The notes under the pieces were generated by a model. The model did not search any database. It saw nothing but the letters and a program-made list of their open reading frames with translations, and was not told the origin of the DNA. 40,717 nucleotides of DNA, taken from a virus. This document shows positions 1,012-30,975 of this stretch, in pieces. Location: positions 64,001-104,717 of IMG/VR virus record IMGVR_UViG_3300045988_164919; one strand, given 5' to 3'. The translations under genes were made by a program, and so were the position numbers. The first letter of the stretch is position 1, and each line of letters starts with the position of its first letter.

Positions 1012-1044
1012 ATTATATTATTCCTCCTTTATAAATTAACCAAT

Positions 1045-2253
1045 TGTGACAGCATAAGTTTCAGTACTATCAATTGCAGCAGGCTAATATACCCAAATAG
1101 TATAAGGAGCTGCAGTATATCCTTCAGCGCCCTCAACATTAACAGTACCAGCTTGCTTTACAAAATTAGCAGTAGCATCAGCATTCATAGCACTAGGCAT
1201 AAGAACCTTACTTACATTATATCCAGCAGGACAAGCAATAACAACTTTCTTTGCTCCAGCACCTGCACCAAATGTAGTAATAGGCTTTTTACTAGCAGCT
1301 TCATGTTTTAATCCACGAATAGTAGTACTATCAAGAGCTGCATCAGTAGTTATAGGACCATAGAACATATGACGGACACCCTAAAGGACATTGCTATCTT
1401 TAGATGCTGAGCCTGCCTTAATCTGGCTAGCAGGATAAGAATTACCTAGATTGGTCTTAGGAATAGTGCCGTAGCCATAAGTTGCGGTTGCAGTAATTTT
1501 TTTAGCTGTTGCTTCAGCAACAACATTATCGAAAGAACCAGTAGCAGTAGCAAGGACATCTTCAACACCAGTGCATTTTACACTCCAACTCTGAGCTGTA
1601 ATACCAGTAGCTGGACCATAAGTATAACTACCAGCAGATAGAGCTGCTGTATATGTTAAATTCTTCTTCGTGCCAATTTCAAATGTACCAAGTCCGCTAG
1701 TAGAGCTGAAACTAACAGCAGGATCAGACTTAGAAGGATTAGCTTCCTTGGCCATTAAGGTAGAAAGGACCTGTTCAACGCTCTTACCTTTAGCTGCAAA
1801 TTTAGCAGAACCAGATGGTTTAGCTAAAGTGCCAATAGCAACAGTATAAGTAATGTCATCATCAAAATAAACATTATCAGCACGATAATTGCCATCCATA
1901 GCTTTCCATTCACCGTCATATACGTAAGCAGTATAAGAAGTCTTATCGCCAGTAATAACACGCTTTACAATAGCAGTATCGCCATTGTGAAGCTCTGCAG
2001 AAGCTACAATACGAGTAATAGCCTGAACGTCAGTTTCTTCACCTGTTGGAATAGCTTCAAAATTTTGAGCGGCTTCGCCACCAAAATATTTTAAGTTTTC
2101 AAGAGTAGTAGTACCATCACCGATTTTCATTTTACGAGTATCGTTCTCGTAAACAATTTCACCAGCTTTTGGGACTGCACTACCTTTTGCTTTAAGAGCT
2201 TCAGCCGTATCATTTAATACTTGAATGCGAGTATTAAGAATATTTTCAGCCAT
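1045..2253 (-). CDS. Tail-fibre / receptor-binding-like protein, about 402 aa, with two in-frame TAG codons read through.
   Basis: Track ORFs 1381..2253 and 1084..1368 are in the same frame. They are separated only by TAG at 1381-1383 and TAG at 1084-1086, and the frame then continues to TAA at 1045-1047. The N-terminus has the Mtd_N-type motif GEIVYENDTRKMKIGDGTTTLENLKYFGG. SD is AGGAGGAAAATAATTT-ATG. Confidence 0.65.
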
Positions 2254-2275
2254 AAATTATTTTCCTCCTATAAAA

Positions 2276-2791
2276 TTAATTAAGAGTATTTGCGTTGCCG
2301 CCATTAAGAATATCATAATGATCTTCTCCATATTGAATAGGTACAAGATTATTATTTACATCTACAATATAAGGCAACCATTTATTATTCTAAAAAATAG
2401 ATACAATTTGACCAACACAATTATGCTAAGTAATATAGTTAATTGCATCTACTAAAGAATTGAAAGAATTTTGTGCTGAAGAAGAAGTTTCTGTAGTTGT
2501 CCATTTACCATCGTAAATATATAATTTACCATCATAAATACACATTTCTCCATCTTCAGCAGTAGCTGGAAGTGCATCAACTGTGCCTAAAAATTCCATT
2601 ACATTATCAGGAAGATCAATTGTACCACTTTCGCCACCGATATATGGTAAATCATTCCATAAGGTTTTACCATCACCAATTTTCAGTTTATGAGTATCTA
2701 ATTCAAATCCAGGCTCGCCATCCTTAAGCAATAAGTTCTTTTCACGCCATGTAGTTGATCGACCTCTTTTGAACTTGATGATATCAGCCAT
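2276..2791 (-). CDS. Tail-fibre N-terminal-domain protein, about 171 aa, with one TAG read through.
   Basis: ORF 2426..2791 carries the motif FELDTHKLKIGDGKTLWNDLPYIGG (Mtd_N-like). It ends at TAG (2426-2428). The frame continues as protein-like sequence (HNCVGQIVSIFQNNKWLPYIVDVNNNLVPIQYGEDHYDILNGGNANTLN) to TAA at 2276-2278. SD is AAAGGAGAACACGAG-ATG. Confidence 0.55.
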
Positions 2792-2808
2792 CTCGTGTTC
2801 TCCTTTCT

Positions 2809-2922
2809 TTAATCATCATCTATAGAGCCGCCATCCCAGCCGCCTGTTGACTTGGAAGTATCTTCTTTGTCAATATCGCCGCCATCTTTGCCGCCCTTAT
2901 ATGAAAGAATAAACATTTTCAT
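2809..2922 (-). CDS. Small Gly/Asp-rich protein, 37 aa.
   Basis: ATG at 2922-2920 with a strong SD (minus AAGGAGAAGGACAAT-ATG). It translates as MKMFILSYKGGKDGGDIDKEDTSKSTGGWDGGSIDDD with stop TAA at 2809-2811. It is below the length cut-off of the ORF track. Confidence 0.3.
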   Translation of the reverse strand: MKMFILSYKGGKDGGDIDKEDTSKSTGGWDGGSIDDD

Positions 2923-3074
2923 ATTGTCCTTCTCCTTTCATATTTAAAATTATTTTATATTGCTCTATACCTGTTGGACCGAAAATTTCTTAAATGGAAT
3001 TTTAATTTAAGCATTCGGTTTTAATGGTCCAAGCCGGCCCGAGCAATCTATAACCTACTGTCTTTAAAATATAT

Positions 3075-3115
3075 AAAAAAAAAGATGGACTGATTAATCT
3101 AATCAGTCCATCTTT
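3075..3115 (-). terminator. Rho-independent terminator.
   Basis: A perfect stem of about 15 bp (aaagatggactgatt / aatcagtccatcttt, 3081-3115) is preceded on + by an A9 run. On the minus strand this reads as a hairpin followed by a T9 run. It lies downstream of tRNA-Ser(TGA). Confidence 0.6.
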
Positions 3116-3154
3116 ATAGAAAGGATGAAATGCAATGAACGAATTTGAAACGAG

Positions 3155-3243
3155 TGGCGCGGAACTGAGGTGTCGATCCCCATCCCTATCACAGGACCAC
3201 TTGTTTTCAAGACAAGGCTTACCGCCGGGCAAGTTAATTCCGC
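3155..3243 (-). tRNA. tRNA-Ser(TGA), type II, CCA encoded, with an atypical T-loop.
   Basis: Minus strand: GCGGAAT-TA-...-CTTGT-CTTGAAA-ACAAG-(long variable arm TGGTCCTGTGATAGGGA)-TGGGG-ATCGACA-CCTCA-GTTCCGC-G-CCA. The acceptor stem is 7 bp and the anticodon stem 5 bp. The loop CUUGAAA gives anticodon UGA. The T-loop is ATCGACA rather than TTCGAAT. Track ORF 3002..3250 is an artefact of this RNA gene. Confidence 0.5.
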
Positions 3244-3648
3244 ATATCATAATTGGCTATAGACCCTTAACTATCTATGATTTAAATACGCCACAATTAC
3301 CATGAAGCTTAGCGATACCAATTATTTTAAAAACAAGACTCATTGAAAAGCCAAAATAAAAACGCGGAATTTAGCTTACTAAACCAGCTAAAAAGAAAAA
3401 ACTTTTCAAAATATACTTTATTTTCTTTATTATACTTTTTCATCTATTATTTGATAAGTAAGTATTGTAGAGCCTTTGTAGGCAAAAGTTTGCTGAAAAT
3501 GAGTCTTAATATATGAGGGGCGGAAAGGAATACCTTGTTGTCTTTGCCCTCGACAAGGTTTAACCGTATTATACGAAAGTAGGGGTATGTTAATGTAAGA
3601 TTAGTTTAAACATCATCGCCACGGGAAGGCTCTTACTTGATAACGCAT

Positions 3649-3728
3649 AGGAGCAAGGGATTCGAACCCTGGACGTGTAGCTACAATTAGTTTTGGAGAC
3701 TAACCCAATCGACCACTCTGGCACTCCT
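3649..3728 (-). tRNA. tRNA with a Trp-type anticodon loop (CCA) and an unusually long variable region.
   Basis: T-arm CCAGG-GTTCGAATC-CCTTG. Anticodon stem TTAGT/ACTAA with loop CTCCAAA, which is identical to the E. coli tRNA-Trp loop. It is followed by 14 nt (TTGTAGCTACACGT). Acceptor AGGAGTG/TGCTCCT with G-U pairs. No CCA is encoded. Confidence 0.4.
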
Positions 3729-3736
3729 ACATATAA

Positions 3737-3828
3737 TGGCGTTGGGTAAAGGATTTGAACCTTTGGTCCCCGTTTCCAGGGACAACTGCTTAGCAGGCAG
3801 CCGCTATCGACCTCTCAGCCAACCCAAC
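3737..3828 (-). tRNA. tRNA-Ser(GCT), type II, CCA encoded.
   Basis: Acceptor GTTGGGT/ACCCAAC, discriminator G, CCA. Anticodon stem GCTGC/GCAGT with loop CTGCTAA gives anticodon GCU. Long variable arm TGTCCCTGGAAACGGGGAC. T-arm AAAGG-TTCAAAT-CCTTT. Confidence 0.6.
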
Positions 3829-3987
3829 AGATATAGAAAAATAGATAGTAAAAAACAAGCATTGCGCCAAGGCGTAAAAACTCTATCTATTGTATAGTTT
3901 TTGTTCCTTACATATTTAAATATATAAGAAAGGATTACCGGTAGCCTGCCGCCTAATGACAGGATTTCCTATAACCGGACTTTATAT

Positions 3988-4173
3988 TCACACCGTGGCC
4001 TCGGTGGAACGAACTCTTACAAAATGTTCAGCCAGATGTTTCGGCATCCAAATCAAAGTGCCATCATAAAATCTGAAAAGATAAGTCATAAAATTATCTT
4101 TATTATCAGCCTTGCGGCACTTACCCTTACCGTACCTCTTACACCAGACCTTATCTCCTGGATTAAACTTCAT
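3988..4173 (-). CDS. Small basic protein, 61 aa.
   Basis: Track ORF with a strong SD (AAGGAGAAAATA-ATG). Protein is MKFNPGDKVWCKRYGKGKCRKADNKDNFMTYLFRF... Stop is TGA. The + strand ORF 4024..4272 is antisense to it. Confidence 0.55.
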   Translation of the reverse strand: MKFNPGDKVWCKRYGKGKCRKADNKDNFMTYLFRFYDGTLIWMPKHLAEHFVRVRSTEATV

Positions 4174-4374
4174 TATTTTCTCCTTAACAATTTTAACAAA
4201 GCCCTAAAATCATTTGCTGGATTTGAACCAACTCTAAAAAATTTTTGCAGAATTTCTTATTTATCCTATTAAAAGTTGCTGTGTGGGCTTTTCATAAAAC
4301 ATTATTAATTATACTCATTTAATCAATTAGCATTACCCAAGATACGCCCCGTGGAGGCTTGATTAATGTATCTC

Positions 4375-4447
4375 TTGCGGGAGTGGGATTCGAACCCACG
4401 ATAACCAGTTTATGAGGCTGGTGTCTTAACCACTTGACGATCCCGCA
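4375..4447 (-). tRNA. tRNA-Met(CAT) elongator-type, or Ile2-type.
   Basis: Acceptor UGCGGGA/UCCCGCA (7 bp, U1-A72). Anticodon stem CCAG/CUGG with loop region CCUCAUAAA centred on CAU. T-arm GTGGG-TTCGAAT-CCCAC. No CCA encoded. Confidence 0.5.
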
Positions 4448-4505
4448 ATATTAACAAGACAATTTTTATACGTTGCGCTACCAATTACGCTATATCCGAT
4501 CTTCG

Positions 4506-4575
4506 ACCAGACAGTAGGACTCGAACCTACAACACACGGCTCCCAAAGCAAATTTATAATTGCTGTATTGTCTTT
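4506..4575 (-). tRNA. Non-canonical tRNA-like gene. The anticodon loop is 8 nt (UUAUAAAU) and the acceptor is weak.
   Basis: A good T-arm (GTAGG-TTCGAGT-CCTAC) and a 3' acceptor strand TGTCTGG are present. Anticodon stem AGCAA/TTGCT encloses an 8-nt loop. The 5' acceptor (AAAGACA) pairs only 5 of 7. Confidence 0.3.
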
Positions 4576-4581
4576 CATAAA

Positions 4582-4655
4582 TGGTGGAGCCAGAGGGAAT
4601 CGCACCCTCGACTTTGAATTAAATTCAACGTTTTCCTACCATAAACTATGTCCCC
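4582..4655 (-). tRNA. tRNA with a candidate UUA anticodon (ochre/amber-suppressor-like), CCA encoded.
   Basis: GGGGACA-TA-GTTT-ATGGTAGG-AAAC-G-TTGAA/TTCAA arm, with central loop A-U-UUA-A-U if folded as a 4-5 bp stem and 7-nt loop. Variable GTC. T-arm GAGGG-TGCGATT-CCCTC. Acceptor 3' TGGCTCC-A-CCA. The palindromic loop makes the anticodon assignment uncertain. Confidence 0.4.
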
Positions 4656-4660
4656 AAATA

Positions 4661-4725
4661 TGATGGTTATAAAACTTAATCTAATGCAGGCATCAGACTA
4701 ATAGAACGCTCCATCAAGTTCTATG
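4661..4725 (-). repeat. Upstream repeat copy 1 (about 55 nt) 5' of the tRNA at 4582-4655. Candidate tRNA promoter or processing element.
   Basis: ttataaaacttaatctaat...cagactaatagaacgctccatcaagttctat is nearly identical to 4985-5045. It contains the inverted repeat atagaac/gttctat. It ends about 5-10 nt upstream of the tRNA 5' end on the transcribed strand. Confidence 0.5.
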
Positions 4726-4759
4726 CACCAGTTGAGTTGTATGTTTTCCGCGAGTGCGG

Positions 4760-4834
4760 TGGCGGGAAACCAAGGAATTGAACCTTGCTTGGCGGATTAA
4801 CAGTCCGCTGCCTGAACCACTAGGCTAGTCTCCC
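4760..4834 (-). tRNA. tRNA-Asn(GTT), CCA encoded.
   Basis: Acceptor GGGAGAC/GTTTCCC, G, CCA. Anticodon stem GCGGA/TCCGC with loop CTGTTAA gives GUU. T-arm CAAGG-TTCAATT-CCTTG. Confidence 0.6.
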
Positions 4835-4906
4835 ATATTCATAGGGAAGGCTTCTAGAAAACCCGTGCGCTTACCACCCTACGTGTTTGGAATATATCAC
4901 ACTTAA

Positions 4907-4982
4907 TGGTGGAACTTGCGAGAGTCGAACTCGCTACCTCCTGCTTGCAAGGCAGGCGCTCTCCCAGTTGAGCTAAAGTCCC
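4907..4982 (-). tRNA. tRNA-Ala(TGC), CCA encoded.
   Basis: Acceptor GGGACTT/AAGTTCC. Anticodon stem CCTGC/GCAGG with loop CTTGCAA gives UGC. T-arm GCGAG-TTCGACT-CTCGC. Track ORF 4854..5036 is an artefact spanning this tRNA. Confidence 0.6.
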
Positions 4983-4984
4983 AT

Positions 4985-5045
4985 ATTTGATAGTTATAAA
5001 ACTTAATCTAATCAGATTAATAGAACGCTCTATCAAGTTCTATAC
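4985..5045 (-). repeat. Upstream repeat copy 2, 5' of tRNA-Ala.
   Basis: ttataaaacttaatctaatcagattaatagaacgctctatcaagttctat matches the element at 4661-4725 apart from an 8-nt indel and 2-3 substitutions. Confidence 0.5.
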
Positions 5046-5075
5046 TTTAAAATTGTTTACATAGGAAAAAGCATG

Positions 5076-5152
5076 TGGCGATGCTAAGGGGACTCGAACC
5101 CCTGACCTTCGGAGAGACAGTCCGACATTCTAGCCAACTGAACTATAGCACC
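5076..5152 (-). tRNA. tRNA-Asp(GTC), CCA encoded.
   Basis: Acceptor GGTGCTA/TAGCATC. Anticodon stem TCGGA/TCCGA with loop CTGTCTC gives GUC. T-arm CAGGG-GTTCGAGTC-CCCTT. Confidence 0.6.
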
Positions 5153-5155
5153 ATA

Positions 5156-5231
5156 TGGTCGAGCTGCTGGGATTCGAACCCAGGTTTGAAGCGTGAAAGG
5201 CTTCTGAATTAGCCAATTACTCTACAGCCCG
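5156..5231 (-). tRNA. tRNA-Glu(TTC), CCA encoded.
   Basis: Acceptor CGGGCTG/CAGCTCG. Anticodon stem GAAGC/GCTTC with loop CTTTCAC gives UUC. T-arm CCTGG-GTTCGAATC-CCAGC. It is 3 nt from tRNA-Asp. Confidence 0.55.
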
Positions 5232-5326
5232 ATAAATGTCAGCCTGAAAACTACTCACTGACCGTTGGACGCAACTCCAAAGTTATTAGTATGCGTTATA
5301 TAAATTCTCGAAAAGAGACACCCGAT

Positions 5327-5494
5327 TTATTCATCAGAAATCATTTTTTCAGATTTCTCTTTTTCTTTCGCCCTATCATATTCCATACCCTTACCTTTTT
5401 TGGCCGGAACAATAGATCTACGACGGCGGAACAGAAGATACTCGTTCAACTCTGTGCTATCCATTTTAATTGCAGGTTTCTTAGTAGTTGCCAT
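5327..5494 (-). CDS. Small basic protein, 55 aa.
   Basis: Strong SD (AAAGGAGATATTTGAA-ATG). Protein is MATTKKPAIKMDSTELNEYLLFRRRRSIVPAKKGKGMEYDRAKEKEKSEKMISDE with stop TAA. It is below the track length cut-off. The + strand ORF 5291..5578 is antisense. Confidence 0.4.
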   Translation of the reverse strand: MATTKKPAIKMDSTELNEYLLFRRRRSIVPAKKGKGMEYDRAKEKEKSEKMISDE

Positions 5495-5548
5495 TTCAAA
5501 TATCTCCTTTATTATTATATAATATTTTTTTTAAATTTTCAAATTTAT

Positions 5549-5625
5549 TGGTGCAGGATATTGGATTTGAACCAATGACCTCTTGGGTGTAAACCAAACG
5601 CTCTAACCAGCTGAGCTAATCCCGC
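5549..5625 (-). tRNA. tRNA-Val(TAC), CCA encoded.
   Basis: Acceptor GCGGGAT/ATCCTGC. D-arm GCTC-AGCTGGTTA-GAGC. Anticodon stem TTTGG/CCAAG with loop TTTACAC gives UAC. T-arm ATTGG-TTCAAAT-CCAAT. Confidence 0.6.
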
Positions 5626-5947
5626 ATATAGTCTATTTAATTAAGCTGCCAAGAAAAATTAAATAGACTTTTATAAAAATCCTCACTGGGTATGGAGGGC
5701 ATATTAGACTGGCTATTACAGTAGGGCTAATAAGGTAGACTCGCTTGAATTTCACAATATTTGGTTCAACACCAAATTAAATAAAACTATATACATAATT
5801 TCTCATGATATAATCTTATTCCATTACTCTTTAAGGTTCTCTAATGGATGAACTACGAGAATTTTGCTATCTTATACTAATTGCGCGTTTTCATATAAGA
5901 ACCATTTAACGTCAGCGATGCTCTATGAAATTTCTCAAACTTGACCT

Positions 5948-6080
5948 GGTGCGCCAGGCGGGGATCGAACCCGCGTTGCCCTGCTTATGGTGCGGAATAT
6001 TGGATTTGAACCAATACATTAAAATGCTACTTACATCAATCCCACAAAGGCAGGTGCCATACCACTTGGCCACTGGCGCA
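5948..6080 (-). tRNA. Interrupted tRNA. The host is tRNA-Lys(UUU)-like (loop CUUU|UAA) and carries a 58-nt nested mini-tRNA-like insertion in the anticodon loop.
   Basis: Minus strand: GCGCCAG-TG-GCCA-AGTGGTA-TGGC-A-CCTGC-CTTT[insert]TAA-GCAGG-GCAAC-GCGGG-TTCGATC-CCCGC-CTGGCGC-A-CCA. The acceptor, D, anticodon and T stems are all perfect only across the insert. Confidence 0.45.
5989..6046 (-). other. Nested mini-tRNA-like element inside the anticodon loop of the tRNA at 5948-6080.
   Basis: GTGGGAT-TG-...-ATTGG-TTCAAAT-CCAAT-ATTCCGC-A-CCA. It has its own 7-bp acceptor (with G-U pairs), a T-arm and a 3' ACCA. Its T-arm and 3' end are near-identical to those of tRNA-Val at 5549-5625. It has no D or anticodon arms. 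Confidence 0.4.
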
Positions 6081-6430
6081 TATACGCATTTTAGAGGTTC
6101 CGGACCCTCTTGAGCAGCATCACTCAAATAAGATTTTGTCACCTAATTTTAAAAATCTTATTAAAAACAAACCGGTTTTATAGCTAAACCTTTAACTCCC
6201 TTTCCGTTTTTACTTATATGTCAAGAAACAACCAAAGAGTAAGTATAAAAAGACAACATATGAAGAATTTGTTTATAGACAAGCTTCAAACACTCGTCTT
6301 GCGGTCATGTTATTTTATAATCAAGTAAGTAATAACTTCAACCGCGTTTCTTTAACTTAAATAACCTTTAATAATAGTCCTATATTAAATAATTAGTTAT
6401 GGGCGACTATTATTTCCCAGCTTTAATTAA

Positions 6431-6505
6431 TCCTTCTATTGGAATTGAACCAATACCTCCGCCTCTTTCAGGCAGCATGCTTCCATTACACCAAGAAGTA
6501 ATATA
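6431..6505 (-). tRNA. Non-canonical tRNA-like gene. The anticodon arm is aberrant (loop UGAAAGA, no U33).
   Basis: T-arm ATTGG-TTCAATT-CCAAT. Acceptor TACTTCT/AGAAGGA (6 of 7 pairs). The CTGCC/GGCGG stem encloses TGAAAGA. This may be a pseudogene or specialised RNA. Confidence 0.25.
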
Positions 6506-6582
6506 TATGGCTTATTTATATAACGATGGAGCCACCAACCACCGAGCCTTGATTATAGTGAATATAGCTACTACTTCACTGT

Positions 6583-6658
6583 TGGTACCGGTGAAAGGAC
6601 TCGAACCTTCAGATTAATGATCCTAAATCATTCGCCTATGCCATTCGGCTACACCGGC
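6583..6658 (-). tRNA. tRNA with anticodon UAG (Leu-type decoding of CUN) but a class-I (short variable arm) structure. CCA encoded.
   Basis: GCCGGTG-TA-GCCG-AATGGCATA-GGCG-AATGA-TTTAGGA-TCATT-AATCT-GAAGG-TTCGAGT-CCTTT-CACCGGT-A-CCA. All four stems are canonical. Confidence 0.5.
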
Positions 6659-6660
6659 AT

Positions 6661-6725
6661 ATGGTGGAAAGAAGTATTTCACCTTTTATAGCGCGCTTCT
6701 CCCCGTTCCCGCGCTACCCCTCTCC
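6661..6725 (-). ncRNA. GC-rich hairpin element ending in ...CTTTCC-A-CCA, 3 nt upstream of a tRNA. Possible tRNA-like minihelix or processing element.
   Basis: A 7-bp GC stem TAGCGCG/CGCGCTA (loop GGAACGGGGAGAA) sits in an otherwise AT-rich region. The 3' end is ACCA. It has no T-loop consensus. The function is speculative. Confidence 0.2.
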
Positions 6726-6909
6726 CAATTAGCTTGATTACAAGAGGATTTTACTATGAAGTTCATCATAGCTAACTATAAAATTTCTTTATAGCTATAC
6801 ATTAAAACCCGATTTCCCTTTGCCTCAGTTTATTTTTAATTGGTCTATTGCCAACGGCAGGTGACTAATCTGCCTAGTTCAAATCGGAAACCCCATGTAT
6901 AAGACCAAT

Positions 6910-6986
6910 TGGTGGGACAGGGAGGTATCGAGCCTCCATCCTTTGGTTTTTCAGACCAATGCTCCGACCTCGTAAGCTACTGTCCC
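6910..6986 (-). tRNA. tRNA-Phe(GAA), CCA encoded.
   Basis: Acceptor GGGACAG/CTGTCCC. Anticodon stem TTGGT/ACCAA with loop CTGAAAA gives GAA. T-arm GGAGG-CTCGATA-CCTCC. Confidence 0.6.
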
Positions 6987-7015
6987 ATACAAATGAGAAT
7001 TTATTTCTCATTTAT

Positions 7016-7060
7016 TTTGTATATATATTTTATAATATTTTTTTTAATTTTTCAATTAAA
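7016..7060 (-). promoter_or_regulatory. Conserved AT-rich promoter motif (class B: TTGAAA-N17-TAAAAT-ATATATA) upstream of tRNA-Phe.
   Basis: Minus strand reads GTTTAATTGAAAAATTAAAAAAAATATTATAAAATATATATACAA. It is a member of a motif family of more than 15 copies. Confidence 0.5.
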
Positions 7061-7295
7061 CTTCAGGGTGACGAACAAAAAATTCAATAAACAAACCTTC
7101 ATCTTGCTTACTATCACAGAAAAGTTCCAATTCATCACCATGCTGACCAAGTAATGCGCCAAGCGCGATATACTGTGAAAGTGCAGATTTCATATTATAT
7201 CTATCACCTTGTGGACTAACCAGCCATACATTACTATGTGCGCGATTAACTGCTGCGATAAAATCTTCAACCTGCTTAATATTTGTCAACTTCAT
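7056..7295 (-). CDS. Hypothetical protein (79 aa) embedded in the tRNA array.
   Basis: Track ORF with SD AAAGGAATTAAAATA-ATG. Protein is MKLTNIKQVEDFIAAVNRAHSNVWLVSPQGDRYNMKSALSQYIALGALLGQHGDELELFCDSKQDEGLFIEFFVRHPEV. Confidence 0.5.
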   Translation of the reverse strand: MKLTNIKQVEDFIAAVNRAHSNVWLVSPQGDRYNMKSALSQYIALGALLGQHGDELELFCDSKQDEGLFIEFFVRHPEV

Positions 7296-7311
7296 TATTT
7301 TAATTCCTTTC

Positions 7312-7460
7312 TATTGGAATATGGTGCTCCCGTCGGGATTTGAACCCACATCTGGCGATTTGGCCCAAGATGTTAGATTTGAACTTACATCTTTCTTGCG
7401 CATAGACTATTTTGCCATTTAAACTAATCTTGGATAAGTCGCCGGCTCTGACCAATTGAG
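7312..7460 (-). tRNA. Interrupted tRNA. The host is tRNA-Ile(UAU)-like (loop CUUAU|AA) and carries a 73-nt nested tRNA-like insertion in the anticodon loop.
   Basis: GCTCTCG-TA-GCTC-AATTGGTCA-GAGC-C-GGCGA-CTTAT[insert]AA-TCGCC-AGATG-TGGG-TTCAAAT-CCCG-ACGGGAGC-A-CCA. The anticodon stem GGCGA/TCGCC pairs only across the insert. Confidence 0.45.
7351..7423 (-). other. Nested tRNA-like element (73 nt, with its own acceptor and CCA) inside the tRNA at 7312-7460.
   Basis: CCAAGAT-TA-GTTT-AAATGGCA-AAAT-...-GTAAG-TTCAAAT-CTAAC-ATCTTGG-G-CCA. It has a perfect 7-bp acceptor, a D-arm-like stem, a T-arm and G-CCA. There is no convincing anticodon arm. Precise excision of this unit leaves a perfect 7-nt host loop CUUAUAA. 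Confidence 0.4.
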
Positions 7461-7484
7461 CTACGAGAGCATTTATTTGATTTC

Positions 7485-7526
7485 TTATTGATTACTTATA
7501 TATTATATTATATTTTTTTAATTTTT
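7485..7526 (-). promoter_or_regulatory. Conserved promoter motif copy upstream of the interrupted tRNA at 7312-7460.
   Basis: Plus strand cttatatattatattatatttttttaattttttcaaattaag. Minus strand reads CTTAATTTGAAAAAATTAAAAAAATATAATATAATATATAAG. Confidence 0.45.
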
Positions 7527-7561
7527 TCAAATTAAGAAATTTACCCAAGACTTTTTATACT

Positions 7562-7636
7562 TGGCTCCAAGGAAGGAATTCGAATCCTTATTTTCAGAAT
7601 TAACTCTGATGAATTATCCAGTTATTCGACCACGGA
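7562..7636 (-). tRNA. tRNA-like gene with an ambiguous UUAA-centred anticodon loop (6 or 8 nt). CCA encoded.
   Basis: T-arm AAGGA-TTCGAAT-TCCTT. Acceptor TCCGTGG/CCTTGGA (one mismatch), G, CCA. D-arm GAAT/ATTC. Anticodon region TCAGA-GTTAAT-TCTGA. Confidence 0.35.
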
Positions 7637-7664
7637 AAAAAGTTTAAGTTGCTGTAAAAGTCTT

Positions 7665-7712
7665 TTTATATAAATATTATATAATATTTTTTATTAAAAA
7701 TCAAATAATTAT
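7665..7712 (-). promoter_or_regulatory. Conserved promoter motif copy.
   Basis: Plus strand tatataaatattatataatattttttattaaaaatcaaataattatttta, a family member upstream of the tRNA at 7562-7636. Confidence 0.4.
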
Positions 7713-7741
7713 TTTATTCAAACAAGACTTATTTGGTTTGG

Positions 7742-7830
7742 TTCCGCTGGGTTTAACCGCTTCCCTACCTCCGCCATATAATGGTGGGGAGGGCAGGATT
7801 CGAACCTGCGTAGCATTCGCGACGGATTTA
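7742..7830 (-). tRNA. Permuted or fragmented tRNA locus. The T-arm, 3' acceptor and CCA segment lies upstream of an acceptor-5' plus D-arm segment.
   Basis: In minus-strand transcript order: ...TCCGT-CGCGAATGCTACG-CAGG-TTCGAAT-CCTG-CCTCCCC-A-CCA then a TTATAT linker then G-GCGGAGG-TA-GGG-AAGCGGTTAAA-CCC-A-GCGGA-AC... GCGGAGG pairs 6 of 7 with CCTCCCC. GCGGA pairs with the upstream TCCGT. Confidence 0.3.
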
Positions 7831-7869
7831 CTGTCCATTTTTTGCTGTTAAAGTCTTTATTTTCTTTAT

Positions 7870-7912
7870 TTTGTATATATATTATATATTAATTTTTATT
7901 AAATATCAAATT
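7870..7912 (-). promoter_or_regulatory. Conserved promoter motif copy.
   Basis: Plus strand ttgtatatatattatatattaatttttattaaatatcaaattt, immediately upstream of the 7742-7830 tRNA locus. Confidence 0.4.
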
Positions 7913-8600
7913 TATAAATTTTTTCTTGTGAATGATTATCAATAATTTCAATTAATTCATTAAGATAATTTTTATTTTCTGCAACTTTATCAATTTCAAT
8001 AGCTAAATTTAAAGCTGTATAACTAAAAGAGAGCTATTCTTTAATTCCAAGAATTTTTTTTATTTCTTCAGTAAATTGCTATAAATTACTTTTATTCAAA
8101 TAAAAATTTCCCAACAATAAAAATAAATTAGTTTTACCATTAATTAAAAAATAAATCTAATCTAAAATTTTCCAAAATTGTTTATCTATTTTTTTAAAAT
8201 TATTAAATAGCAATTTTAAACAATAATTTATATAACTAATATTTTGTTCAAAATTAAAATTATTAAAATCAGTGTATATTAACTAATTATCAAAATTATA
8301 ATTATTATTAATAATCTACAATAATAATTTATATCTATTAATAAAAATTTTATCTTGAATTTCCATAATTTTATATAATTCTATACCTTTATATTGTTTT
8401 AATATATCCTTATGTAAAATATATTTTTGACATAAATATTCATAAACAGATAAAATCTAAATATCCATATTATATTTTTGAAAATTTATATTCTTATAAT
8501 TACTTATACAAAATAAAATATTATCTTGTATAAGATACATATAATATATCTTACAGTTATATGTATTTTCGATAAATATTTTTAAATTATAATGGTTCAT
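7890..8600 (-). CDS. Asn/Ile/Lys/Tyr-rich hypothetical protein (about 236 aa) with at least 5 in-frame TAG codons. It is the last gene of the radical-SAM module.
   Basis: Hand translation of the minus strand gives continuous protein-like sequence: MNHYNLKIFIENTYNCKIYYMYLIQDNILFCISNYKNINFQKYNMDI-Q-ILSVYEYLCQKYILHKDILKQYKGIELYKIMEIQDKIF...WKILDLDLFLINGKTNLFLLLGNFYLNKSNLQQFTEEIKKILGIKEQLSFSYTALNLAIEIDKVAENKNYLNELIEIIDNHSQEKIYKFDI. It is interrupted only by TAG (for example at 8457-8459) and ends at TAA TAA (7890-7892). The ORF track shows this region as ORF-free. Confidence 0.5.
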
Positions 8601-9237
8601 TTCTACTTGTGCCACTACATGTGCCAGTACAGCTTGTACATAAACCTGAACAACTTCCTCCACACAATCCAGTACAATCGTTAGCACAATGTCTTGTACA
8701 GCTACCACTGCATCCACTACATCCTGTATAGCATCCACCTGAGCAAGAACCACTACATCCGCTACAGCTACCACTACAACTGCTTCGACATCCGCCTCTG
8801 CAAGTGTTTTGACAGCCTCCTTGGCAAGTATTCTTACAACTACCTAAACAAGTTCCCTAACATTGTACTCCACAACTTTCGCTACAACTGGTAGAACATA
8901 ATCCAGTGCAATAAGCTGAACATCCAGTATTCGAATCAGTTAATCCCATAGCTTGATAAGCTGTAATTTTTGCCTCTAATGTACTTAAATCATCATCTTT
9001 AATAACATTTATATTTTCATTCTGATTTTCAATATTTATTGCCGCCATAGGTTCTACCAGTTTTGTTATGTGTTCTTTTGAAATAACTTTTCCATTATCA
9101 GGCTAAGTAGTATAATCATAAGAAGTCCCTCCATATGAACTTACACTACCGGTATATTTACGACGTAAACATTCAGCCTTTATTTTTTTCTTTAATTCAT
9201 TGAATCTATCAGAAGTTATTGTCGTTCCTATTTTCAT
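8587..9237 (-). CDS. Cys-repeat precursor-like peptide (about 216 aa with two TAG codons) with a C-terminal (C-x3)n run of about 30 cysteines. An alternative internal start lies at 9048.
   Basis: ATG at 9237-9235 with SD AAAGGAGACAATGACAA-ATG, 28 nt after the radical SAM stop. Frame: MKIGTTITSDRFNELKKKIKAECLRRKYTGSVSSYGGTSYDYTT-Q(TAG 9103-9105)-PDNGKVISKEHITKLVEPMAAINIENQNENINVIKDDDLSTLEAKITAYQAMGLTDSNTGCSAYCTGLCSTSCSESCGVQC-Q(TAG 8857-8859)-GTCLGSCKNTCQGGCQNTCRGGCRSSCSGSCSGCSSGSCSGGCYTGCSGCSGSCTRHCANDCTGLCGGSCSGLCTSCTGTCSGTSRNEPL, then TAA at 8587-8589. Track ORF 8857..9048 is the middle fragment. Track ORF 8457..8774 is partly the wrong frame over the Cys repeats. Confidence 0.6.
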
Positions 9238-9265
9238 TTGTCATTGTCTCCTTTATTATATTATA

Positions 9266-10549
9266 TTCATCCTAAGAGATAATTTTTAATGCTTTTTCCA
9301 TATCTCCATTAAATTTAAATCGTTTATTCGAGTTTATTTTTTTTAAAATAGAATTTAAATAATATAAAGAAGCTAGAACTGTAGCATAATGCATATCACA
9401 AATATAAGTAACTCTTTTATTAACATTACCTGTTTCTTGATAATTATAAGCTGTACACCAAGAGCATCCTCCAGAAATTTCACAATCTAAACATTCTTGA
9501 GGAGATTGACTAATAACTGTTATTTCAGATAAATCTTTTAATCTATTGATGGTTAAATTATCTTGGCCTATTCCCTAATAAATATCTCCAATATAATATT
9601 CTGGCTGATTACTTATGCTATCTTCCATATAACGTAAACATGGATAATATTTACCTTTCCAATTTAAGGCTAACATACGACCATTCCCGCCACACCAATT
9701 ATCATTAGATAAATTTTTACTTCCATCATTAATATAAAAAATAGATAAATAAACTTTATCCCACAAATCATTATTTAATAAATAATCAGCAATTTTTTTT
9801 AACTAATAATATAATGTAGTGGCATGGTTAAGTTCCCAACCTTTTTCATACACACAATTTAGATTGATTTGACTATAACCATTGTTTATCATTTCTAAAA
9901 CAGCGTCATATAAATAATCTATATTAAATGGAGAGATAGTCATTTTACTCCCAATCCATTTATTATAATTATGGCTATAATGTAATGCGGCAGACAATGC
10001 TTTATCATAACTACCACTACCATCAGGGAAAACTCTACAAGCGTCATGTAATTTTTTATTTCCATCAATAGAAATTGATAAACTTAAATTTTCATTATTT
10101 TTTTTAATATACTCTTGTACTTTTTGTTCAAAATATAAAATACCATTAGAACTAATTGAAATTTTATATTTAGTAGCCCAGGGATGCCGCAATTCAATCA
10201 TTTTATTAATAAAATAATCAGTAATCTAATCAATTAATTCAATTTCTAAAAATGGCTCTCCACCTATAAATTCTATTATTACTCCTGGTATTTTATAAGA
10301 ATCAATATAACCAATAATTTTATTATCTCTGGTTAATATCTAATCAATCATCTGTTTAGCTGTTTCAAAAGATAATTTATGTTTACCTTTATGCCCTTGA
10401 TAACAATAAGTACAATTTAAACAACAATCATCTGTAACCTAAAATGTTAATGTAAATACAGACTAAGAATTTAAACAATCTTCAGGATATAAACGACCTA
10501 TAAAATCAGAAAATTCTTCAGGAATGTGGCTTATTTTAGGAAATAACAT
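9266..10549 (-). CDS. Radical SAM enzyme with a C-terminal SPASM domain (AnSME/peptide-maturase family), 427 aa, with 7 in-frame TAG codons.
   Basis: ATG at 10549-10547. The N-terminus has the CxxxCxxC radical SAM motif (VTDDCCLNCTYCYQG) and a GGEP motif (EFIGGEPF). The middle has SISIDGNKKLHDACRVFPDGSGSYDKAL (AnSME-like). The C-terminus has a SPASM Cys cluster (QECLDCEISGGCSWCTAYNYQ...YICDMHY). Track ORFs 9803..10201 and 9575..9766 are fragments. In-frame TAGs at 10463, 10439, 10340, 10247, 10226, 9803 and 9575 lie inside otherwise conserved sequence. Terminal stop is TGA at 9266-9268. Confidence 0.7.
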
Positions 10550-10817
10550 CAATAATTACCTCATTTGTATAAAAATCTAAATTCCAATTGCAAGTTTGAT
10601 TCCCAATTTCTGGTTTGATATAATTATTTTCTAATTCTAATTTAGCTAATTCATATTCAGCAAATAATTCTATATACTCATTATGATAATCATCAAAAGC
10701 TTTATTTCTAATATTTTGTCTAATTAAAAATTGACATAAATTTTTTCTAGCTTCAATTTCATAATTTAATTTCTAAAGATAATTTACTTCTTCTTGAGGA
10801 ATTATAATCTTCTTCAT
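10536..10817 (-). CDS. Small protein (93 aa, one TAG) immediately upstream of, and overlapping, the radical SAM gene.
   Basis: ATG at 10817-10815 with SD AGAAAGGAATAAAAAT-ATG. Protein is MKKIIIPQEEVNYL-Q-KLNYEIEARKNLCQFLIRQNIRNKAFDDYHNEYIELFAEYELAKLELENNYIKPEIGNQTCNWNLDFYTNEVIIDVIS with stop TAA. It overlaps the radical SAM start by 14 nt. Confidence 0.45.
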
Positions 10818-10899
10818 ATTTTTATTCCTTTCTTATATAAGAAATTTAATTATTTAATTAATATAATATGCCCTATATAAATAATTATAACATAAAAAT

Positions 10900-10926
10900 A
10901 AGAGAAAGTCAATTTGACTTTCTCTT
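10900..10926 (-). terminator. Terminator hairpin downstream of gene 10925..11233, followed by the promoter region of the radical-SAM module.
   Basis: aagagaaagtcaatttgactttctctt is a perfect 11-bp stem. On the minus strand it is followed by ATTTTTAT. Confidence 0.5.
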
Positions 10927-11233
10927 ATAAACCAAGCTTTTCAATTAAAGCTTTTAAATTTTCTTCTTCTTCTGGACTAATTTCTGTAGCCTTCTTTACA
11001 GACTGAATTGTTGCTCCATTTTCAAAATTAAGTTCATTATTACCAAAATCCATAGAACCAAAATTTTCTACAGGAGTTTTCGGACACGTTAGACTAATTG
11101 CAATCTGAATATATTGTCCATTTTCTTTAGCTCGCACATAATACTTTTTATCATAAGATCCGAGGAAATCTTCACCAAATGCTTCTGCAATTTTTTCTAC
11201 AACAGCATCTTTAGCAATACTACCTTTTGCCAT
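10925..11233 (-). CDS. Hypothetical protein, 102 aa.
   Basis: Track ORF. Protein is MAKGSIAKDAVVEKIAEAFGEDFLGSYDKKYYVRAKENGQYIQIAISLTCPKTPVENFGSMDFGNNELNFENGATIQSVKKATEISPEEEENLKALIEKLGL. Confidence 0.55.
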   Translation of the reverse strand: MAKGSIAKDAVVEKIAEAFGEDFLGSYDKKYYVRAKENGQYIQIAISLTCPKTPVENFGSMDFGNNELNFENGATIQSVKKATEISPEEEENLKALIEKLGL

Positions 11234-11352
11234 TATTCATTCTCCCTATCAAATAAAATTTCATCATAACAAGCTTCACAATAGTAAGCATTGTTTTCTT
11301 CATCATAAATTAAATCTTTTTTATCATAATACATATTACAATTATCACATAT

Positions 11353-12555
11353 CTAATAATTGTCTCCGCAACTACGGCATACATAACCATCATCATCATC
11401 TAATGATATTGCTTCAGGAATATAAATACGTCTACCGCATTCTCTACAGAAAGTAAAATCTTCTGTTTCTTCTGTACCATATTTAAGTTCACAATCAATA
11501 CAAAGCATCGTATCTGTTAAAACACAATCATTTTTACCACAAATACAACATTTTACATCATGTCCTATATTAACTTTAGTAGTGGTACGAGTTCTTGGAA
11601 GAATTAATTTATCTTGCGGAATACCTTCTTCATGCCAATAAGGTTCACTATAAGCAATACTAAACCAATAGTCATATACAGTAGAATGAAGAGGGTCATT
11701 ATAATGTAAAGGATTTTTTGGGTCAACAATAACCTTAATATCTGGGGTCATCATATACCCAGTAGGTAATAAACGAACTTCATTAGAAAAGATTTTATCA
11801 TTTATTGTAAATGTATTATATTTTTCATGACACCAATCGGTAAACCGATATCCTTGCCCGAAAAATGTTTCATACAGTTCAAGAGCAAAATCTTGTAATC
11901 CTTTACTTTCATAAGGATAATGCCGACCTGAAATAACCATAGTATCATCATCAGATACATGAAGAAGCATACGCCACTTCTTATCTGCCCATGGTACATC
12001 ATCTGGAAATCTAGGTAAAACCGCATCATGTTCACTCTTAATATAACATATAATCGTACAATTATCTGCCATATAAGATAAATTACCAGCACGATATTCT
12101 CCATCAAGAGCATGACATGACCGCCAATTATGCGTATTTTCACTTAAACTAAGATAATCCAATGGATGAACTGACATACAAAAATATCCACTAATTTTTG
12201 TATTTTGAATAAGCATACTAGCTTTATCTTGTATTTCAGTAAGAATTTCCTTATCTTCTACAAAATATTTAAATGCTTTAATTATTTTCATTCCTTTTGG
12301 AATGATAGTTCCATTATTCATTGAATAATCTTCGCTTAAAATATTATTATAAAAATTTTTTCTATTATTTTCAACAAAATCTCTTAATTCAAATAAGCCA
12401 TAACGCCAACGAATGTTGTCAATAAAACAATCTAATTCAGCTTTTTTATCATCTTCTGAAATAGACATTGTAATAGGTGCATGACTTTGATAAATTAATT
12501 TATTACCAGGAAGTCTGCTATAAAATTTGCATTTATTCTCTTCCCAATCATTCAT
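11353..12555 (-). CDS. Paralog A (400 aa) of a three-member family with a conserved HPLDY...SxN..W.SC...YRxG core and a C-terminal CxxC zinc-ribbon cluster.
   Basis: The long ORF has SVHPLDYLSLSENTHNWRSCHALDGEYRAGNLSYMADN, matching SIHPLDYMTMSDNANCWESCMNWTQGPGSYRAGTIEMMNSP in 15150..16808 and SIHPLDYLTMSDNACDWESCMNWYQGGDYRLGTVEMMNSP in 21796..23460. The C-terminus is CCICGKNDC...CIDC...CREC...CRSCG. A possible N-terminal extension to 12660 runs through the TAG at 12592-12594. Confidence 0.7.
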   Translation of the reverse strand: MNDWEENKCKFYSRLPGNKLIYQSHAPITMSISEDDKKAELDCFIDNIRWRYGLFELRDFVENNRKNFYNNILSEDYSMNNGTIIPKGMKIIKAFKYFVEDKEILTEIQDKASMLIQNTKISGYFCMSVHPLDYLSLSENTHNWRSCHALDGEYRAGNLSYMADNCTIICYIKSEHDAVLPRFPDDVPWADKKWRMLLHVSDDDTMVISGRHYPYESKGLQDFALELYETFFGQGYRFTDWCHEKYNTFTINDKIFSNEVRLLPTGYMMTPDIKVIVDPKNPLHYNDPLHSTVYDYWFSIAYSEPYWHEEGIPQDKLILPRTRTTTKVNIGHDVKCCICGKNDCVLTDTMLCIDCELKYGTEETEDFTFCRECGRRIYIPEAISLDDDDGYVCRSCGDNY

Positions 12556-12635
12556 TAATTTATCAATATTTAAAAGGTTAATGTCCAGTCCCTATGAATA
12601 GGCAATAACCTTCTTTACTTGTTCTTTAATTTCAT

Positions 12636-13634
12636 TTAAATTACAACAGGGACTCGACATTTATCACATACTCTTTCTTTCATATTATTTGAATAAAATA
12701 AATTATAGCACCTTTCACATTGATGAATATTAGGATCAAGTGCCAAACATTCAGGGCATACATGAACCTTTACTCCATCAATATCAAGAGGAAAATCTTC
12801 CCACTCATAATACAACTGATTACAAAAACTACAATTAATAAGTTTATCATCATCAAAATCATAAGGCATATGATATTTATTAGTCAATGTAATCCACTGA
12901 AGATATTCCTTGCTGGGGATAAATTTATATTTATCTGCATTTTCAATATCATCAAGCATTTTACATACTTTATTAATTGTATTATACAATGTTCTAATAT
13001 GCAAATCTTCATTTTGAGTATGTTCATGATGATAGCCAACTGATAAATTTACTCCGGCAATTTCCCATTCAGGCATAATAATACTAATATCTGTAAATGA
13101 TCCAATTGCTTGTCTAAAACCAAAACTTTCAACATAATCTATAAATGTAAAATTTTCACACTCATAGAAGACACAATCTCTTTCACCAGCTCTATCAAGC
13201 TCAATCATGTACTTAATATTTGGAGCTACTGGATGTGCTTCAACAAATATATGCGCACCATAGCCACCCATTTCTTCATCCGTTGTAAAAAGAACATAAG
13301 GTCTATACTTTTTGCGTAAAATCTGAATAATCGCAAAAACACCTGCTCTATCGTCTGCTCCAAGACCTTCCTTGCCTTTATAAACAGCTCTTTTCTCATT
13401 ATAAGTAAATTGACGAATTGGTTGTCTAAATACAGTATCTACATGTGCAATAAGCATAACAGGAATATTACCTTCAGCATATACATAATCTTCTGTAATC
13501 TCTACATTAGAATATTTATTAGATACAAAATCACCGAGAGCTTTCAAAAGACCTACTTCACTAATCTTGAATAACCCTTCCAAGAGCCCTCTACAATTTT
13601 CAGTAAAATCAGGAACTAAAACTTTTTTACCCAT
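12636..13634 (-). CDS. M42/M28-like zinc metallopeptidase domain fused to a C-terminal zinc ribbon, 332 aa.
   Basis: It has the motifs IAHVDTV (HxD), DDRAGV (DDRxG) and TTDEEMGGYGA (EE catalytic pair), then a C-terminal CSFCN...CPEC...CERC...CDKC cluster. Confidence 0.6.
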   Translation of the reverse strand: MGKKVLVPDFTENCRGLLEGLFKISEVGLLKALGDFVSNKYSNVEITEDYVYAEGNIPVMLIAHVDTVFRQPIRQFTYNEKRAVYKGKEGLGADDRAGVFAIIQILRKKYRPYVLFTTDEEMGGYGAHIFVEAHPVAPNIKYMIELDRAGERDCVFYECENFTFIDYVESFGFRQAIGSFTDISIIMPEWEIAGVNLSVGYHHEHTQNEDLHIRTLYNTINKVCKMLDDIENADKYKFIPSKEYLQWITLTNKYHMPYDFDDDKLINCSFCNQLYYEWEDFPLDIDGVKVHVCPECLALDPNIHQCERCYNLFYSNNMKERVCDKCRVPVVI

Positions 13635-13648
13635 TTCTTATTCCCTTC

Positions 13649-15108: not shown

Positions 15109-15158
15109 TTTTATGTATATATTATATTATTTTATTTTAAAAATTTCAATTAAATCGC
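15109..15158 (-). promoter_or_regulatory. Conserved promoter motif copy (class B, TTGAAA-type) upstream of the moron gene.
   Basis: Minus strand CGATTTAATTGAAATTTTTAAAATAAAATAATATAATATATACATAAAA. Confidence 0.45.
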
Positions 15159-16808: not shown

Positions 16809-16830
16809 GATTATTTACTCCCTTTATTTT

Positions 16831-21732: not shown

Positions 21733-21770
21733 CTATATATATTATATCAAATTTTTTATAAATTTTCGAG
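21733..21770 (-). promoter_or_regulatory. Conserved promoter motif copy (variant).
   Basis: Plus strand ctatatatattatatcaaattttttataaattttcgag, upstream of 21261..21716. Confidence 0.35.
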
Positions 21771-21795
21771 TATTCAATTTTGGCAAGAATTTAAA

Positions 21796-23460: not shown

Positions 23461-23485
23461 TTTAATTCACCTTTTCCCTTTAATT

Positions 23486-30959: not shown

Positions 30960-30975
30960 ATAATATTTCCTCCTT

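Follow-up and report, generated by a model that had tools for sequence, protein, structure and literature searches.

Among described systems, two rSAM enzymes, that is, radical S-adenosylmethionine enzymes, come closest to the one considered here. PapB, of the freyrasin system, is an rSAM/SPASM enzyme that acts on a peptide with several C-X3-D cysteines and forms small thioether rings, and the SCIFF maturase CteB, whose N-terminal region binds the leader, also forms a thioether. A further system is catalogued as a pair of protein families, a CXXX-repeat substrate (TIGR04114/PF27846) and its maturase (TIGR04115). This pair is experimentally uncharacterised and defined by sequence and gene neighbourhood only, and nothing on it was found in the full-text literature searched. 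We analysed a stretch of viral DNA of 40,717 nucleotides (positions 64,001 to 104,717 of the IMG/VR virus record IMGVR_UViG_3300045988_164919), called the window below and numbered from its first letter, in which an earlier note made from the letters alone had pointed to a gene for a cysteine-rich repeat protein. Judged by profile matches, this CXXX protein and the enzyme encoded next to it are a member of the catalogued TIGR04114/PF27846 and TIGR04115 pair. Together with a small third gene they form a cassette that lies in the tail module of related phages. We see about even chances that the CXXX protein has a structural role in association with the tail and is cross-linked by the rSAM enzyme, by analogy through thioether bonds.

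The CXXX gene has the following parts.

8590..9237, minus strand: coding sequence of the CXXX-repeat protein, 216 amino acids, with the ATG at 9237 and a TAA stop at 8587..8589; two TAG codons are read as glutamine
8923..9237, minus strand: N-terminal domain (N-domain), amino acids 1-105, conserved and helical according to an alignment of 94 homologues and AlphaFold2
8617..8922, minus strand: CXXX repeat, amino acids 106-207, with 27 cysteines, the presumed substrate region of the rSAM enzyme, delimited from the translation and spacing counts
9253..9248, minus strand: Shine-Dalgarno sequence AAGGAG, read from the sequence, 10 nucleotides 5′ of the ATG at 9237

The protein has 28 cysteines, one at residue 23 and 27 within residues 106-207, and in the repeat they follow each other at a spacing of 4 (23 times) or 3 (3 times). 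Cysteine accounts for 26 % of the repeat, glycine for 21 %, serine for 20 % and threonine for 11 %, and only one aspartate and one glutamate occur across it. When the residues of the repeat were shuffled 100,000 times, cysteine pairs at spacing 4 averaged 2.8 and reached 12 at most, as against the 23 present. No second comparable cysteine run was found in any frame of the whole window. The earlier note had described about 30 cysteines at a strict four-residue period in a Gly/Ser/Thr matrix, which was essentially right, except that there are 27 and that the period is nearly, not fully, strict. Tandem Repeats Finder recognised almost no tandem repeat at the DNA level across the cysteine region, and the periodicity is therefore held at the protein level.

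Such a composition raises the question of a metal-binding protein that would keep its cysteines as free thiolates and act as a sink like metallothionein, as a store of metal or Fe-S, or as a buffer of redox state. This would fit 26 % cysteine in a Gly/Ser/Thr matrix, and the profile searches gave a non-significant similarity to the cysteine-rich, vanadium-binding vanabin2 (E 0.43). There was no match to a metallothionein or metal-binding family in Pfam or NCBIfam, the spacing is CXXXC, as opposed to the CXC, CXXC and CC clusters of metallothioneins, and the constant linkage to an rSAM enzyme, the tail context and the fusion to fibre-type domains reported below would be left unexplained. We regard metal binding as highly improbable. 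The metallothionein-like sink proposed in the earlier note had nothing beyond the cysteine content in its favour.

The upstream limit of the gene is set by conservation. The earlier note had attached an N-terminal extension of 63 codons through a TAG codon, and this extension is genuine, being conserved in homologues that have no stop at that position. A strong Shine-Dalgarno sequence does precede the ATG at 9237, as had been claimed, and none precedes the internal ATG at 9048. The start at 9237 is the correct one, because the 63 codons that precede the internal ATG encode part of a domain that the whole family conserves.

Related loci, recovered mainly by the enzyme scans described below, are referred to by L numbers. 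Compared with its counterpart in the close relative L001, whose enzyme is 95 % identical, the window repeat has 20.5 synonymous as against 4.5 non-synonymous differences, and the ratio of non-synonymous to synonymous substitution rates (dN/dS) is 0.05. The repeat is under purifying selection, and since this ratio was obtained in the cysteine frame, that frame is the coding one. The excess of synonymous differences also bears out the view that the Val/Ala-rich open reading frame (ORF) 8457..8774 is a wrong frame. In the more distant L004 (68 % enzyme identity) the non-cysteine residues have diverged, but the register is kept by 25 cysteines of the repeat. Indels that break the frame in close relatives had been named as what would speak against the protein; both L001 and L004 keep the cysteine frame and register. 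The synonymous rate (dS) against L001 (7313..7960; window 8617..9237) is uneven along the gene, with 0.37 in the repeat and 0.047 in the N-domain, an approximately 8-fold difference. The high value in the repeat suggests recombination or gene conversion within it.

Two codons of the gene would be stops in the standard code.

9103..9105, minus strand: in-frame TAG, codon 45 of the CXXX gene; L033 ('FTAQP') and L040 ('FTTQP') have Q at the aligned position, and the N-domain runs across this codon in all homologues
8857..8859, minus strand: in-frame TAG, codon 127 of the CXXX gene, inside the repeat; TAG in the window and L003, CAG in L001 and L002, in an otherwise identical context

The database protein P0001, 97 % identical and also of 216 amino acids, has glutamine at both sites. 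Moreover, the rSAM gene, which carries seven in-frame TAG codons, still aligns end to end with its family model, and the window genes stop with TAA (23 of 31) or TGA (8 of 31). TAG encodes glutamine in the CXXX gene and is a sense codon in this phage. The earlier note had read through these codons, rightly so in view of the glutamines at the same sites in homologues and of the CAG in L001 and L002. The idea that TAG codons mark late or structural genes was dropped, as they are present in many genes across the window. Although TAG codes for glutamine, no tRNA with a CUA anticodon turned up in the window. At 4585..4655 (minus strand) Rfam recognises a tRNA (48.5 bits) that ARAGORN missed, and hand-folding gave the anticodon loop AUUUAAU with the anticodon UUA. 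A tRNA of this kind would be an ochre-type suppressor reading UAA and, by wobble, UAG, yet TAA ends 23 of the 31 genes.

The enzyme is encoded immediately next to the CXXX gene.

9209..10549, minus strand: rSAM/SPASM maturase of the CXXX-repeat target family (TIGR04115), with seven in-frame TAG codons, directly upstream of the CXXX gene

Its conserved part ends near 9317, and with read-through of the TAG at 9272..9274 its 3′ end would extend over the start of the CXXX gene. The match to TIGR04115 reached 431.3 bits (cut-off 350, E 3.7e-129) and covered model positions 3-359 of 359. The next-best families were PapB (162 bits), the SCIFF maturase (108), CcpM (TIGR04068, 101), the anaerobic sulfatase maturase (anSME, 65) and the CefA/CefB system (NF038107, 52), and cyclophane-forming maturases were also among the weak matches. 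The translation contains the CX3CX2C motif as 'CCLNCTYC' and the full set of SPASM cysteines ('C-X12-G-X4-C', 'CLDCEISGGCSWC' and the final 'YIC'), and Pfam recognised Radical_SAM and Fer4_12. CteB is the closest solved structure (PDB 5wgg, E 3e-21). Alignment with CteB starts no earlier than its residue 95, and alignment with the SCIFF maturase model no earlier than position 93, so that the part of CteB that binds the leader is without counterpart in the window maturase. The enzyme thus has no N-terminal region of the RRE type, the recognition element of peptides that are ribosomally synthesised and modified after translation (RiPPs). The rSAM genes of jumbo phages (SPN3US and Erwinia phage groups) share no more than about 25 % identity with the window maturase. 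Elsewhere in the window, 29802..30974 (minus strand) encodes a SAM synthetase, MetK, with all three Pfam S-AdoMet_synt domains, and such a phage MetK could supply the co-substrate for a radical-SAM enzyme.

The CXXX protein itself matched TIGR04114, the rSAM-target "Cys-rich repeat" model, at 21 bits against a cut-off of 20, a marginal score to a repeat model of 18 positions. It had no other match in Pfam or NCBIfam, the Pfam copy scanned being older than PF27846; this family ("tSAM_targ_Cxxx_rpt") is assigned to most listed homologues, including P0001. The protein is not an unusually large SCIFF or ranthipeptide core. Because it belongs to a catalogued family with 13-86 cysteines, its cysteine count is normal and not anomalous.

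A scan of viral contigs for the enzyme gave 102 relatives, 80 of which were kept, and a scan of species-representative genomes gave 17. All 17 bacterial relatives are Bacillota/Clostridia (Oscillospiraceae, Lachnospiraceae, Blautia, Eubacterium), and cultured strains with the cassette are Anaerolentibacter hominis CSJ-1 (L090) and Anaerobacterium chartisolvens DSM 27016 (L094). A CXXX-repeat ORF accompanies the enzyme on the same strand in 75 of the 81 viral or GenBank loci and in 16 of the 17 bacterial ones, and the exceptions are truncated on the relevant side. This constant pairing with a radical-SAM/SPASM maturase indicates that the cysteines are modified enzymatically.

A protein search with the CXXX protein found 632 relatives. 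In the best 120 of them, 85 % of the steps between cysteines have a spacing of 4 and 12 % a spacing of 3, the consensus of the unit is C-[ST]-G-[SGT], and a repeat holds 13-41 cysteines; the largest count among the loci, 86, was found in L039. No names given by the sources exist for the homologues. Searches of GenBank phages returned no relative of the window at the DNA level and no match to the N-domain, and a close rSAM homologue was found there only in two unannotated faecal contigs. Some loci depart from the usual arrangement. The 128-kb viral contig L073 has at least six tandem CXXX-repeat genes (1..7524) upstream of a maturase version of 708 amino acids, whose N-terminal extension weakly matches an intein-containing rSAM model. 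In L034 (2596..3696), L087 (4227..5296) and L089 (2196..3409) the CXXX gene is broken within the repeat into two frames that overlap, which could reflect an assembly error, real frameshift mutations or programmed frameshifting.

A third gene belongs to the locus, and a candidate control region lies just before it.

10536..10817, minus strand: small conserved cassette protein of 93 amino acids; the gene has one TAG, lies immediately upstream of the rSAM gene and overlaps with it
10884..10928, minus strand: terminator-like hairpin (10928..10898) overlapping a promoter-like site TTGACT-17-TG-TATAAT (10912..10884), found by a consensus scan, just 5′ of the 93-amino-acid gene

This is the only gene conserved alongside the pair, and in 45 loci tblastn placed it immediately upstream of the rSAM gene. 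The conserved unit is a three-gene cassette of the 93-amino-acid protein, the rSAM/SPASM enzyme and the CXXX protein. A profile search collected 89 homologues of the small protein, none with a Pfam domain or a name, and the window protein itself had no match in NCBIfam, nor in Pfam or PHROGs at the thresholds used. AlphaFold2 predicted a strand, a long helical hairpin and a beta hairpin, with a predicted local distance difference test score (pLDDT) of 94.5. Since the model had no significant fold match in the PDB, where only generic helical hairpins were returned, the protein is not PqqD/RRE-like. The promoter-like site is the best of the region, such sites not being enriched over shuffles, and it marks a possible start of the transcription unit. 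The three genes are probably co-transcribed, because this site lies 5′ of the 93-amino-acid gene and the genes overlap or abut.

The N-domain of the CXXX protein has the motif F..LK.K[IV]KAE..RR.Y.GS...Y.G..YDY...P...EH..K...P..AIN, in which E22, R25 and R26 are invariant in the alignment of 94 homologues. AlphaFold2, run with these homologues, gave the N-domain a pLDDT of 80-94, with helices at residues 9-25, 54-67 and 81-95, and the repeat a pLDDT below 50, that is, no predicted fold for the unmodified chain. A profile search of the PDB with the protein gave nothing significant. In the L042 group, whose enzyme is 48 % identical, the substrate has no N-domain and begins directly with the repeat.

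The function of the cassette is best approached through its neighbours, in the window and in the related loci.

1..1017, 1036..2256 and 2276..2812, minus strand: three tail-fibre-like structural genes, matching the PHROG categories tail fiber, tail spike and hyaluronidase N-terminal and, in addition, phrog_38190 and phrog_35541
7899..8470, minus strand: ORF of about 190 amino acids that lies immediately downstream of the CXXX gene and has six in-frame TAG codons; conserved in L001-L004 (37-96 % identity), no Pfam match

The tail-fibre-like genes are on the same strand as the cassette, and this unannotated ORF and a tRNA array lie between. Among 135 neighbour proteins from 19 diverse loci the commonest PHROGs were baseplate wedge subunit, tail collar fibre, tail protein, tail fibre and endolysin. 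Of the 10 loci examined, 7 have a gene for a tail fibre, tail-collar fibre or tail protein immediately upstream of the cassette, and 5 have an endolysin gene immediately downstream. Short tail-collar-fibre proteins are encoded at this upstream position in L033, L079 and L095. A. hominis CSJ-1 (L090) has PHROG tail-fibre or minor-tail matches on both sides of the cassette. In the 170-kb phage contig L099 the cassette stands between fibre-like genes, which match phrog_38190 and phrog_35541, the same families as the window genes 1..2256, and genes for the distal tail protein (Dit) and minor tail proteins. In the L042 group a repeat of 48 cysteines forms the N-terminal 220 residues of a protein of 816 amino acids, the rest of which consists of two ALK_LTK_GRD glycine-rich domains (E 2e-96). 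This fusion gene lies between a tail-fibre-like gene and the genes for a 112-amino-acid protein, the rSAM enzyme and an endolysin. A read-through fusion of the tail-fibre-like gene (91 amino acids) with the CXXX-GRD gene was ruled out by a TAA stop followed by a separate Shine-Dalgarno sequence and ATG.

The same neighbourhoods could also be read as those of a RiPP-type cargo, a moron near the lysis genes. The N-domain would then be a very long leader and the repeat would be cross-linked, the product, whole or trimmed, being released at lysis or serving as an intracellular bacteriocin-like, signalling or anti-competitor molecule. The enzyme does belong to the radiation of rSAM/SPASM peptide maturases, with PapB, the SCIFF maturase and CcpM as its next-best families and CteB as its closest structure, and in several loci the compact cassette sits at the tail-fibre/lysis junction, a common cargo site. 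In the window lineage an M28-type peptidase gene (12636..13637) is also found three genes upstream. We rejected it as a leader peptidase, as it is linked to the cassette only in that lineage (L001-L004, L075, L076), and no protease or transporter is conserved with the cassette. The supposed leader is a folded domain of 105 amino acids that is absent in the L042 group, where the repeat is fused to large glycine-rich domains. The enzyme lacks an RRE-type region, its 93-amino-acid partner is not PqqD-like, and 13-86 cysteines are unlike a defined bioactive scaffold. In L090 and L099, moreover, the cassette is placed inside the tail module and not at its edge. We therefore hold a RiPP-type cargo to be unlikely. 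The folded N-domain, its absence from L042, the missing RRE-type region, the lack of a conserved protease or exporter and the range of cysteine numbers likewise argue against a classical RiPP leader/core arrangement. The earlier note had offered two alternatives to a RiPP core: that of a cross-linked virion component gained from the tail context, the L042 fusion and the absence of an RRE and of a conserved protease or exporter, and that of a metal sink found no support.

We thus favour, at the even chances given above, a structural tail protein cross-linked by the rSAM enzyme. The CXXX protein, with its helical N-domain of about 105 amino acids and its repeat of 27 units, would be the substrate of the upstream rSAM/SPASM enzyme, to which the 93-amino-acid protein perhaps presents it. 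By analogy with PapB and CteB, the enzyme would take hydrogen from carbons of the repeat and join the cysteine sulfurs there. The Gly/Ser/Thr/Cys stretch would in this way be turned into a series of small thioether rings, forming a stiff rod that resists proteases, and the product would stay a protein and not be trimmed to a small peptide. The N-domain, or the fused glycine-rich domains in other phages, would connect the repeat to the tail, as a fibre or a fibre-associated rod. Thioether chemistry, incorporation into the virion and function as a rod are all things that we infer. A more specific version, which we put forward tentatively and with some doubt, is a rod of the tail fibre or baseplate that is stiffened and protease-proofed by dozens of rSAM-installed thioether staples, the number of repeats tuning fibre length in phages of gut Clostridia.

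Several observations weigh against a thioether-stapled tail protein. On the side of chemistry, the similarity to PapB (162 bits) is far under the PapB cut-off of 340, and the thioether bonds are deduced solely from likeness to PapB and CteB. PapB-like chemistry needs an acceptor, yet the repeat is almost without aspartate and glutamate, and the rSAM superfamily also carries out formylglycine formation and C-C cross-linking. As for the virion, the immediate neighbours of the cassette in the window are non-structural (a Zn-ribbon-rich protein, the M28-type peptidase and the tRNA array), and the families of the glycine-rich domains are of 'unknown function' in PHROGs. The tail-fibre/lysis junction is also a common site of cargo genes in temperate phages, and position alone is no proof. 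Searches with the N-domain fold gave nothing from the PDB with Foldseek (best E 1.4) and only uncharacterised homologues from BFVD, and Pfam, PHROG and fold searches recognised no receptor-binding or fibre domain in the window CXXX protein.

A rival explanation is a tail-associated protein that is not thioether-stapled. It could be a disulfide-laddered fibre, comparable to nematocyst minicollagen and keratin-associated proteins, or an assembly scaffold or chaperone, and the rSAM enzyme would carry out another chemistry, for example the conversion of cysteine to formylglycine or dehydro residues, or C-C linking. The tail context is the same, and the chemistry cannot be read from homology when the enzyme also matches the anaerobic sulfatase maturase (65 bits) and cyclophane-forming maturases. 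Although the hosts are strictly anaerobic, virions encounter oxidising conditions once released, and disulfides could then form. On the other hand, the closest characterised enzymes are PapB (162 bits) and the thioether-forming SCIFF maturase (108 bits), as against 65 bits for the sulfatase maturase, and the anSME target motif C/S-X-P/A-X-R is absent from the repeat. We judge this explanation decidedly unlikely.

The remaining observations concern other parts of the window. Three paralogous large proteins are encoded on the minus strand (11233..12660, 15150..16814 and 21742..23466), with the common core 'HPLDY[LM][ST][LM]S[DE]N...W.SC' and C-terminal CxxC zinc-ribbon-like clusters. Their sole match was phrog_18912, of unknown function, and one of these paralogues accompanies the cassette in the window lineage (L001-L004, L075, L076). 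Several tRNA genes have unusual structures. Two tRNA-like units, 7715..7855 and 7545..7665 (both minus strand), share an inverted repeat, AAAGACTTT ... AAGTCTT, that flanks each of them. The first seems to be circularly permuted: the anticodon arm, a long variable arm, the T arm and the 3′ acceptor strand with CCA come first, and after 6 nucleotides the 5′ acceptor strand and the D arm follow. The second is a cloverleaf with an anticodon loop of 6 nucleotides, GUUAAU. Two further tRNA genes on the minus strand, 5947..6079 and 7322..7470, were found in the intron mode of ARAGORN, with Rfam tRNA matches of 31 and 43 bits, and have apparent insertions of 58 and 73 nucleotides in the anticodon loop.

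What is new here is the conserved N-domain of 105 amino acids, the third gene for the 93-amino-acid protein, the phage tail-module context and the TAG-recoded large-phage host genome. The CXXX/rSAM system belongs largely to phages and probable prophages of gut Clostridia, and its interest lies less in the single locus than in the family comparison, which suggests an rSAM enzyme dedicated to a phage tail protein. To our knowledge, no case has been described in which a radical-SAM enzyme modifies a structural protein of a virus. If our explanation is true, radical-SAM peptide chemistry would extend to structural proteins, and a RiPP-like modification would make a material and not a small molecule. 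It would also point to a way in which gut phages make their fibres resistant to proteases, and it would provide a genetically encoded means of producing stapled protein rods. In this way a "RiPP of unknown function" is turned into a testable hypothesis, the enzymatic covalent hardening of a virion part.

Compared with known systems, the locus shares with metallothioneins a high cysteine content in a small protein without aromatic-rich cores, and differs from them in having CXXXC in place of CXC/CXXC clusters and in the constant pairing of the CXXX protein with a modifying enzyme. Two virion structures offer functional analogies only. Like the collagen-like G-X-Y shafts of tail fibres, the CXXX repeat is a periodic low-complexity repeat by or fused to fibre domains and varies in length between phages, and, as in the HK97 capsid chainmail, a part of the virion could be hardened by covalent cross-linking. 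Neither structure is related to the repeat in sequence or fold, the chemistry of the repeat differs, and here a dedicated rSAM enzyme would install the links. The CefA/CefB Cys-every-fifth system (NF038107) and CcpM (TIGR04068) also combine an rSAM/SPASM enzyme with periodic cysteine-rich substrates, but the scores of 52 and 101 bits are far under the respective cut-offs of 600 and 500, and periodicity and substrate architecture differ. With the SCIFF maturase CteB (PDB 5wgg/5why; TIGR03974) the window enzyme has in common the rSAM core and a SPASM domain with auxiliary clusters. SCIFF substrates, however, are of about 45 amino acids with six cysteines, and the N-terminal leader-binding region of CteB is missing in the window enzyme. 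The PapB/freyrasin ranthipeptide system (NF047865), the second-best family match, is alike in its rSAM/SPASM enzyme and in the four-residue register of the cysteines. It differs in having six units on a short leader-core peptide, as against 27 on the window protein of 216 amino acids, and the Asp/Glu acceptor of PapB is unavailable at most window units. Of the TIGR04115 and TIGR04114/PF27846 system the locus is itself a member, as the enzyme scores over the equivalog cut-off along the full model and the substrate has a CXXX repeat and adjoins its enzyme.

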